Positions 4,935-16,874 of a stretch of 31,761 bases of DNA are shown piece after piece; positions within the stretch are counted from its first letter, which is position 1; each line of letters starts with the position of its first letter. Position numbers and translations under genes: made by a program. The notes beneath the pieces were generated by a model. That model did no database searches, had not been told where the DNA came from, and was given only the letters and a program-made list of their open reading frames with translations. Origin of the DNA: Pseudomonadota bacterium (GTDB lineage: Bacteria; Pseudomonadota; Alphaproteobacteria; UBA1280; UBA12223); the NCBI GenBank assembly GCA_002937495.1, contig PTJW01000001.1, positions 1-31,761 of the forward strand, given 5' to 3'.

Positions 4935-5318
4935 GAAAAGGCACTGGGCTACTGCTGGTTTTTGCTATTTTTTTAGACAAAAACGAGAGGAAAGTCCGGG
5001 CACCGTAGAAGAGGATTCCAGGTAACTCCTGGCGGTATCACACGATATTAGGGAAAGTGCAGCAGAAAATAACCGCCTATTTTCAATAGGTAAGGGTGAA
5101 AAGGTAAGGTAAGAGCTTACCGCTGCTTTTAGTAATAAAAGTGGGTCAATGTAAACCCAATCCGGTGCAAGACCAAAAGCGCTGTTAAAAGCTTGTTCTT
5201 CGCAAGCTAGCGAGAATGGTGGGTTGCTCTGACCTTATTAGCAATAATAAGGCTAGATGAATAGTAGCACAGCAAGTTTTTACTTGTGGACATAACTCGG
5301 CTTATAGGTGCCTTTTCT
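4934..5318 (+). ncRNA. rnpB: RNase P RNA, bacterial type A
   Basis: GAGGAAAGTCCGGGC, GGAAAGTGCAGCAGAAA, GGTAAGAGC, TAAACCC...GGTGCAAGACCAAA, CTAGATGAAT, ACATAACTCGGCTTA; P1 ends AGAAAAGGCAC/GTGCCTTTTCT. Confidence 0.97.
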
Positions 5319-5320
5319 AT

Positions 5321-14253: not shown

Positions 14254-14505
14254 AAAAAAACGCCCCTTATCATTTTTTATTTTGTCCCTAGATTATTTTA
14301 GGCTATCACTTAATGGTTGCAATTACAAAGATTTATGCATTTAAATACATAAAATCATATTTTTTTTATTTTTTCATATAAAAAACTATATACATAAAAA
14401 CCATAGGTTGCTATAATTTAATTATAATTTATCAAAAAATTTCCGAGTAATTCAATGGGTTATTCAACTATTCAATCCACTAAACTATTATAAAAAAGAC
14501 ACAAA

Positions 14506-14532
14506 AAAGCTCAACCATAAAGGTTGAGCTTT
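14506..14532 (-). terminator. rpsD terminator
   Basis: AAAGCTCAACC-ataaa-GGTTGAGCTTT with an A-tract on the plus-strand 5' side (U-tract on the minus strand). Confidence 0.82.
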
Positions 14533-14549
14533 CAAGTATATGAACCTTA

Positions 14550-15161
14550 TTATCTTGAGTAGAACTCGATAATTAAGTGTGGGTTCATTTGTACTGGGTA
14601 AGGAACTTCGTCAAACTCAGGAAGTCTGTTGAATGTACCTTTAAACTTATCAGCAGTGATGTAGTCAGGGATTTCTCTTGCGCCTTTTTCTACAGCTTCT
14701 TTAACCATAGGAATTGCTTGAGATTTTTCTCTAACTTCAATAACGTCACCAATTTTACACATGTAAGAAGCAATGTTAACTACTTTACCGTTTACTAGAA
14801 CGTGTTTGTGGTTAATTAACTGTCTTGCAGCGAATACTGTTGGTACGAAGTTTAGTCTGTAAACAATAGCGTCTAGACGTGATTCTAAAATCTTGATTAA
14901 GTTTTCAGATTTATCGCCTTTTCTTCTTGAAGCTTCTTTGTAAACTGCTACAAATTGCTTTTCTGAAATGTTACCATAGTAACCTTTTAGCTTTTGCTTT
15001 TCTCTGAACTGAACACCATAGTCAGTTAGTCTACCTCTTCTAGCACCGTGCATACCTGGAGCTGAAGTTCTAGTGTTTGTAGGGCACTTATCGCTACCCC
15101 AAAGGTTTTCACCTAATCTACGAGCGATCTTGTATTTAGGTGTAAGTCTTCTGTTTGCCAT
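14550..15161 (-). CDS. rpsD: 30S ribosomal protein S4 (alphaproteobacterial type, no Zn ribbon)
   Basis: [59 protein letters not shown]...IEFYSR. Confidence 0.98.
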
Positions 15162-15313
15162 TTTAAGTTATTTCCTTATTTATTTCACGAACCATCCTAA
15201 GCAGTTAAATAGGTATTATATTTCAAACACTTATCTTCGTGAACGCTATAGCTAAACTATAGTGTACTGCTTGGCTTTTATCAGAATATGTAAGAAATTT
15301 ACACATTCAACTA
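15162..15313 (-). promoter_or_regulatory. Structured ~150-nt 5' leader of rpsD (candidate ribosomal-protein leader)
   Basis: Four sets of complementary segments, two of them crossing (see findings); lies between the promoter and the AAGGA SD. Confidence 0.55.
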
Positions 15314-15319
15314 AAATTC

Positions 15320-15347
15320 ATTATAATTATTTTTACTTTATAGTCAA
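15320..15347 (-). promoter_or_regulatory. rpsD sigma70 promoter
   Basis: Minus strand TTGACT (15347-15342), 16 nt, TATAAT (15325-15320). Confidence 0.7.
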
Positions 15348-15368
15348 GTATTTTCAACGATTTATAAT

Positions 15369-15401
15369 AAAAAAAGAAGTTTGAATAACAAACTTCTTTT
15401 T
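15369..15401. terminator. Terminator of MCP-1
   Basis: AAAAAGAAGTTTG-aataa-CAAACTTCTTTTT. Confidence 0.82.
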
Positions 15402-15404
15402 AAA

Positions 15405-16874
15405 CTACTTTCTAATTTCTTGAATTTTATCTGAAACCTCTCTGGCACTATTTGATGCCTGTCCCATTCTTTCTGAAATATCATTTGTTGCACTTCTTTG
15501 TTCTGACATTGAAACTACAAGCACTTGAGTAAACTCATTAATAGAATTAATTTTAGTAACAATATTTTCTATTGACTTTACAGAGTTATCACTATTATTC
15601 TGTATTTTATTAACTTGCTCTGTAATATCTTTTGTAGCTGAAGATGTTTGTTGCGCTAGCTTTTTAACTTCTTCTGCTACTACAGCAAAACCTCTACCTT
15701 CCTCACCAGCTCTTGCTGCTTCAATTGATGCATTAAGTGCTAATAAGTTTGTTTTTTCTGCAATCTCTTGAATTAATTTTACAACTTCTCCAATTTTTTC
15801 TGCACTAATATTAAGTTCATGAATAGTTTCTCGACCTTCTGTAGCCTCTTCTTTAGCTAACATTGTCATATTACTTGTTTCATCTACTTTAATACCAATA
15901 TCTTCTAATGTAGCTGAAAGTTGGGCTGCTGCTGTTGAAATTCCTACAACATTTTCTTCTACAATTGATGAAGCATTTGCAACATCTGATGTAATAGTTT
16001 GAATTTTTTCTTTATTTTCTAACTCTAGTCTTTCTTTTTCTGCTTCTGTTGACATTTCTAAAGCTTGTTTTTCAGCTGCGCTTTCTTGAAAAACTTTAAC
16101 ACACTGTGCCATCATACCTATTTCATCTTTTCTTGTCATATCAATTTTAATATCAATATTATCATTAGCTAAGTCTGTCATATTACCTTGTAAGTTTAAT
16201 AATGCTCTCTTAAAATCAATAAATATAATCATAAAGATAATTAGAACAGCTAAAATAATTAGAGCTAACTCAATAACAATAACTGTAGTAAAGTGTTTTT
16301 GTTCTGCATGCATGTTACCAAAATAAACACCTGTACCAATCATCATATCTAAAGGCTTAAAGTACTTAATATAAGCCACTTTAGTTTCTATTAATTTTGT
16401 TTTTGGATTCTCAAATTCATACTCTATAACACCTTGGCCTTTTGTTTTAGCTAAGTTAGCAAACTCTTGAATAAAGTATTTGCCTGTGCTGTCTTTTAAG
16501 TTATATAGAGACTTACCTTCTAAAGCAGGTTTAGCTGCATGATTTTGCACAATACCTTTTGTATCAATAATAAAAATATAACCCTGACCATCATCAAAAA
16601 TCATATCATCAATTTCATTATAATATTGCTCAAGCATTATATCTAATGACATTTGGTTATTTTCAACTTGCTTATAAAGTTTTTCAACTCTATTATAAGC
16701 TAAAGTAATTACAGTTTCTAACTCTTCGATTTTACCAATTTCAAAAGTTGAGTTCTTTTGATAAATCATATAAAAACTTGAACTTACCATTACACAAAAA
16801 ATACCTGCAATAAGTAAAATTAATTTTGTACGAATAGTCATAGTTCTTAGTAAATATTTTATAAGTCTGATCAC
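15405..16874 (-). CDS. Methyl-accepting chemotaxis protein 1 (TM, sCache_2, TM, HAMP, MCP signal)
   Basis: GYIFIID..G...H....LEG.....KD..GK, K.AY, GTGVY; RKDEIGMMA (HAMP); [33 protein letters not shown]; GTG start with AAGGA SD. Confidence 0.95.

Follow-up and report, generated by a model that had tools for sequence, protein, structure and literature searches.

A candidate pseudoknotted S4 leader upstream of rpsD in a small order of marine Alphaproteobacteria

Ribosomal protein S4 is the nucleator of 30S assembly and a classic autorepressor. Its autorepression is established in E. coli and in Bacillus, where it acts on leader RNAs (PMC10931766, PMC3849166). The gene for S4, rpsD, is separate in Alphaproteobacteria, and the reason for this is an open question according to a 2024 review (PMC10931766). 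The S4 leaders in a survey of r-leaders come from Gammaproteobacteria, Firmicutes, Bacteroidia, Flavobacteria, Clostridia and Fusobacteriales only (PMC7247131), and an alphaproteobacterial S4 leader is absent from this survey, from a study of Bacilli and from the 2024 review (PMC7247131, PMC3849166, PMC10931766). The stand-alone rpsD of an uncultured marine alphaproteobacterium raises the question of whether S4 may limit its own synthesis in this class as well, and through what kind of RNA. A reading made from the letters of this locus (the sequence-only reading) had proposed a pseudoknotted S4 autoregulatory leader. Our analysis supports the proposal, since three helices and their compensatory changes are found in all six genomes of the order, with S4 binding suggested by the gene context.

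The rpsD transcript and the helices of its leader

The window (the whole stretch of DNA that was analysed, 31,761 nucleotides) belongs to a 1.0-Mb, 73%-complete MAG. Homologues of its rpsD product in a protein search are named 30S ribosomal protein S4 and bear the S4 Pfam domains (Table 1). The upstream neighbour of rpsD is a chemoreceptor gene that ends at 15405. Since rpsD has its own promoter and flanking terminators, it is monocistronic, and since it is the sole gene on the transcript, S4 is the only encoded candidate ligand. The transcript is predicted to start near position 15313, and the predicted 5' UTR is about 150 nt long. Elsewhere in the window, positions 4936-5320 of the plus strand hold a full-length bacterial RNase P RNA of class A (253 bits).

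Table 1. Features of the rpsD locus in window coordinates and, in the last twelve rows, leaders of a second type in the coordinates of their own loci
Feature	Position	Strand	Description
rpsD, ribosomal protein S4, 203 aa, monocistronic	14550..15161	minus	homologues: PF00163 and PF01479
Promoter, sigma-70-type (predicted)	15320..15347	minus	TTGACT 15347-15342, 16-nt spacer, TATAAT 15325-15320; 11/12 matches
Terminator of upstream chemoreceptor gene	15401-15371		terminator prediction
Intrinsic terminator 3' of rpsD	14505..14533	minus	12-bp stem, then T run
Shine-Dalgarno (SD) AAGGA	15173..15177	minus	11 nt before AUG (15161-15159); sequence reading
Hairpin a	15284..15308	minus	10 bp, 5-nt loop; window's genus only
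Helix b, 5' strand AAGCAGU	15266..15272	minus	pairs with ACUGCUU; followed by invariant AC (15265-15264)
Helix b, 3' strand ACUGCUU	15199..15205	minus	pairs with AAGCAGU
Hairpin c, CUAUAG(U)/(G)CUAUAG	15246..15262	minus	closed by invariant pairs C15264-G15244 and A15265-U15243
Pseudoknot helix d, 5' strand UUCACGAA	15236..15243	minus	pairs with d3'
Pseudoknot helix d, 3' strand UUCGUGAA	15184..15191	minus	pairs with d5'; ends 6 nt before SD
Hairpin e, variable insert	15207..15235	minus	in the loop between d5' and b3'; RNAfold MFE
Second leader type, L010	2132-2200	minus	
Second leader type, L013	1397-1476		
Second leader type, L015	1403-1473		
Second leader type, L018	1400-1474		
Second leader type, L024	1409-1473		
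Second leader type, L036	1364-1453		
Second leader type, L101	1080-1168		
Second leader type, L118	1098-1176		
Second leader type, L171	648-726		
Second leader type, L187	2136-2232	minus	
Second leader type, L190	2139-2230	minus	
Second leader type, L180	775-852		

The sequence-only reading had set out four helices, and b, c and d are present at the coordinates it gave. Helix b (15272-15266 with 15205-15199) is 7 bp long; helix c (15262-15257 with 15251-15246) has an additional U-G pair (15256/15252); and helix d (15243-15236 with 15191-15184) forms 8 perfect base pairs and crosses b. The fourth element, hairpin a, pairs GAAUGUGUAA (15308-15299) with UUACAUAUUC (15293-15284); its coordinates and its 10 bp stand, but it contains one G-U pair (15304-15288) rather than the two that had been counted. 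A 27-codon uORF in hairpin a was discarded because it is missing in the sister species. The RNAfold MFE structure of the leader contains a, b and c together with the extra hairpin e, and d appears in the centroid.

Architecture and covariation across the order

The GTDB order comprises six species genomes in four families, all with a stand-alone rpsD. In each of them the leader is located between a conserved promoter (a TTGAC[TG] box and a TA-rich -10 box, 16-17 nt apart, at the equivalent position) and rpsD, and the elements follow one another in the same order: b5'-AC-c-GU-d5'-[e]-b3'-[f]-d3'-SD. The b5' strand ends in GU and is followed by an invariant AC; hairpin c comes at the equivalent place with unrelated sequences and lengths, and is closed by the invariant AC...GU pair step; d5' comes directly after hairpin c and its GU, and pairs with d3' across helix b; and d3' itself lies 1-8 nt before the SD and 15-22 nt before the AUG. 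The remaining elements vary. Hairpin e is present in four of the six leaders, with a 6-7-nt linker in its place in L003 and L006; hairpin f, between b3' and d3', is optional and otherwise represented by a 7-8-nt linker; and hairpin a is kept in the sister species and missing from the other four genomes. The motif is present in a single copy in each genome. Both the SD and the AUG are located downstream of helix d, unpaired in the pseudoknot model. When the core leaders of L003, L004 and L005 are folded without constraint, d3' pairs with the start-codon region in the MFE structure (for example, GCGUG with CAUGC) and the SD falls in a hairpin loop; this pairing, which is absent from the unconstrained MFE structure of the window's own leader, could be the alternative conformer of a switch or a chance product of short A/U-rich sequence.

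Covariation in relatives, which the sequence-only reading had named as a test, is positive: helices b, c and d occur in 6/6 genomes and compensatory changes are found in both crossing helices, in a sample of six sequences and about four independent lineages that lies below the reach of formal significance. For helix b, counted on an alignment with both strands in register, 95% of cells pair as compared with 27-67% when the partner is slid, and two-sided changes are seen at three pairs (AU/CG/UA, UA/AU and GC/AU). MAFFT misaligns the six whole leaders because the hairpin inserts vary, and only the ends of the b-to-b segment align in register; helix d was therefore counted by script on hand-anchored columns. 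In this count 38 of 39 cells pair, as compared with 28-49% when slid, and three positions show two-sided changes (d4 is CG or UA; d6, CG or GC; d8, AU, UA or CG). In L006 the two strands read UUUAGGU/ACCUAAG instead of (U)UCACG/CGUGA(A), and a swap matrix indicates that they pair solely with each other. In each of the six leaders d5' can pair with the 16 nt upstream of the SD better than shuffles can (p = 0.0007-0.04), and the same duplex test is weaker over the whole 50-nt tail (p up to 0.37). In addition, hairpin c shows two double compensatory changes within the window's genus, and hairpin a shows one (UA to CG) in the sister species.

Covariance models built from the window and its sister species (R1) and from three other genomes of the order (R2) matched only those two genomes and only those three, respectively. 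Since neither model detects the other families, the case for homology among the six leaders comes from their shared architecture and from short conserved strings. Across the six genomes, which represent four families, the fold is encoded and is maintained through compensatory changes, always before rpsD and as a single copy.

S4 as the candidate ligand

It is reasonably likely, judging from the fold and its place, that the rpsD 5' UTR, about 150 nt long, serves as a cis-regulatory ribosomal leader, with a pseudoknot through which S4 would limit its own synthesis. We infer S4 as the ligand, and initiation as the step that would be repressed, from the gene context. In the proposed mechanism, helix b would stack on hairpin c via the invariant GUAC...GU junction, and d5', on leaving hairpin c, would pair with d3' just upstream of the SD to give the pseudoknot. 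Free S4 in excess of 16S rRNA may then bind and stabilise the fold, and the bulky RNA-protein complex against the ribosome-binding site would either block initiation on rpsD or trap the 30S subunit. This mode would be analogous to, and not homologous with, that of the E. coli alpha operator. The repression step itself is not evident from the sequence, the SD and AUG being outside the pseudoknot.

The same fold could be real and conserved and yet have a ligand other than S4, serving to stabilise the 5' end against RNases, to enhance translation or offer a standby platform, or to bind some other factor or metabolite. Structure and covariation are silent on the ligand, and the unpaired SD and AUG of the model and the absence of clear 16S mimicry fit such roles. 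We nevertheless regard them as unlikely, since the motif occurs once per genome and solely before a monocistronic rpsD, since the encoded r-protein is the expected ligand by the gene-context logic of r-leaders (PMC7247131), and since no riboswitch family in Rfam 15 matches the leader.

Mimicry of the S4 site on 16S rRNA was considered and is unsupported, the leader bearing no convincing resemblance to that site. Within the 5' domain of 16S rRNA in this order, GGUAC occurs just once, in AUGACGGUACCUGA, which we take to be the distal part of h17 in E. coli numbering. Deleting distal h17 leaves S4 binding unaffected (PMC2665224). In one genus (L004:1350-1435 and L005:2178-2264, the latter on the minus strand) hairpin c has a 7-nt loop with the sequence UUACUCC or UAACUCC, and UAACUCC is identical to a stretch of 16S helix 18 in the same genomes (GGCUAACUCCGUGCC). 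This likeness was set aside; the other families of the order are without a UAACUCC loop, and it may be due to chance.

A very unlikely account is that the pairings reflect chance complementarity in an AT-rich spacer, or that transcription starts at an internal site, so that b5', c and d5' would not be part of the mRNA. A promoter-like site does occur within the leader (TTCACG-17-TATAAT, window 15215-15243, minus strand), where it coincides in part with d5' and with the hairpin e loop and scores 10/12, and the MFE of the leader, -33.8 kcal/mol as compared with -25.5 +/- 3.3 for dinucleotide shuffles, corresponds to a z-score of just -2.5. However, the -10 box of the internal site is not conserved in the sister species, whereas all six leaders retain the upstream promoter, and compensatory changes in b, c and d over four families would not be expected from chance.

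The proposed S4 leader can also be compared with those already described. The E. coli alpha-operon operator (Alpha_RBS in Rfam) is a nested pseudoknot that is restricted to Gammaproteobacteria and located before rpsM of a five-gene operon (PMC3616713). Like the present leader, for which S4 is the putative ligand, it is a leader pseudoknot by the ribosome-binding site, and it is bound by S4 in translational autorepression by entrapment (PMC10931766); its knot, however, includes the ribosome-binding site and precedes rpsM, whereas here rpsD stands alone and the SD and AUG are outside the knot. The Firmicutes rpsD leader (Bacillus subtilis; Grundy and Henkin) is similar in its monocistronic, stand-alone rpsD, its long structured 5' UTR and an SD close after the last helix (PMC3849166). 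It consists of two hairpins and bears a conserved GUAA bulge, a mimic of 16S rRNA, and the pseudoknots proposed for it are unsupported (PMC3849166); in contrast, the present leader has two covarying crossing helices, and what is conserved across the six leaders is not GUAA but the string GUAC, hairpin c and GU. The S4 candidates of Bacteroidia, Flavobacteria, Clostridia and Fusobacteriales (Eckert and Weinberg 2020, PMC7247131) are likewise lineage-restricted motifs before rpsD-containing transcripts, predicted from covariation and gene context, but they come from other phyla, have other folds that are mutually unrelated, and have no match here in the Rfam scans.

An Infernal comparison with the Rfam r-leader models, suggested as a check by the sequence-only reading, was run, and no r-leader model matches the leader. 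In a cmscan of window positions 14900-15500 against all 4227 Rfam 15 models the leader is unmatched at E <= 10; the whole window has no Alpha_RBS match at the Rfam 15 gathering score; and the leaders of the five relatives have no Rfam 15 match at E <= 1. That the leader is a diverged form of one of the described types, with which it would share the presumed ligand and, in the case of E. coli, a pseudoknot (PMC10931766), is scarcely credible in view of these searches, of the E. coli site lying before rpsM and including the ribosome-binding site, and of the Firmicutes GUAA bulge, which occurs there without a supported pseudoknot (PMC3849166) and was not found here. The rpsD leader of this small marine order is, credibly, a lineage-specific and previously undescribed structural type of S4 leader.

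Other rpsD leader types in the class

The distribution of the pseudoknot was followed in a class sample that takes in about 210 families, each with at most three genomes. A loose descriptor run over 195 loci fits the six members of the order and a few G-U-rich chance matches, and about 54 class-level rpsD upstream regions, read by eye, contain no other convincing instance. Among the matches listed in a metagenome scan, S4 relatives have at most 63% identity, and some 50 S4 proteins in the protein search, at 70-93% identity, come from relatives outside the leader sample. In the class sample, only one further family has an S4 as close as those of order members (82-84% identity to L003).

The family with the closest S4 (L181, L182 and L183, from genomes G385, G268 and G105) carries a leader of another, third type. 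The outer helix of this leader, CUGCAAU/AUUGCAG, surrounds a CCAC-YUUG-GUGG hairpin together with the conserved string UUUCGAYAAGGCGGUACA, and L183 has a compensatory variant of the helix, GUUGUGGU/ACCACAAC. The string CGGUAC is common to this type and the pseudoknot leader. No conserved pairing to the pre-SD region is seen in the three loci, and the type has no Rfam match.

A second leader type occurs in many other alphaproteobacterial families, at about 12 of the 81 loci sampled (Table 1). It has UUCCGAGAA at its 5' end, followed by one to three variable hairpins and by CUAUCGGGACAACAA about 30 nt before the AUG. Its 6-bp outer helix covaries (CG/UA, GC/AU, AU/GC), and no Rfam 15 family matches it. 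This is probably another undescribed S4 leader, and one distributed more widely than the pseudoknot leader.

Taken as a whole, these leaders allow a tentative scenario, which may well need revision, in which the Alphaproteobacteria, after rpsD left the alpha operon, evolved at least three unrelated and undescribed S4 operators: the pseudoknot of the order, in which the GUAC...GU junction would provide a new fold for S4 binding, convergent with the E. coli pseudoknot; the CGGUAC type of the sister family; and the widespread, three-way-junction-like UUCCGAGAA...CUAUCGGGACAACAA type. Judging from the two additional leader types, surveying rpsD leaders systematically across the Alphaproteobacteria would be worthwhile. 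The new covarying pseudoknot provides a concrete RNA for studying how S4 recognizes non-ribosomal targets, and would add another independent example of unrelated RNA folds being selected by a single protein.
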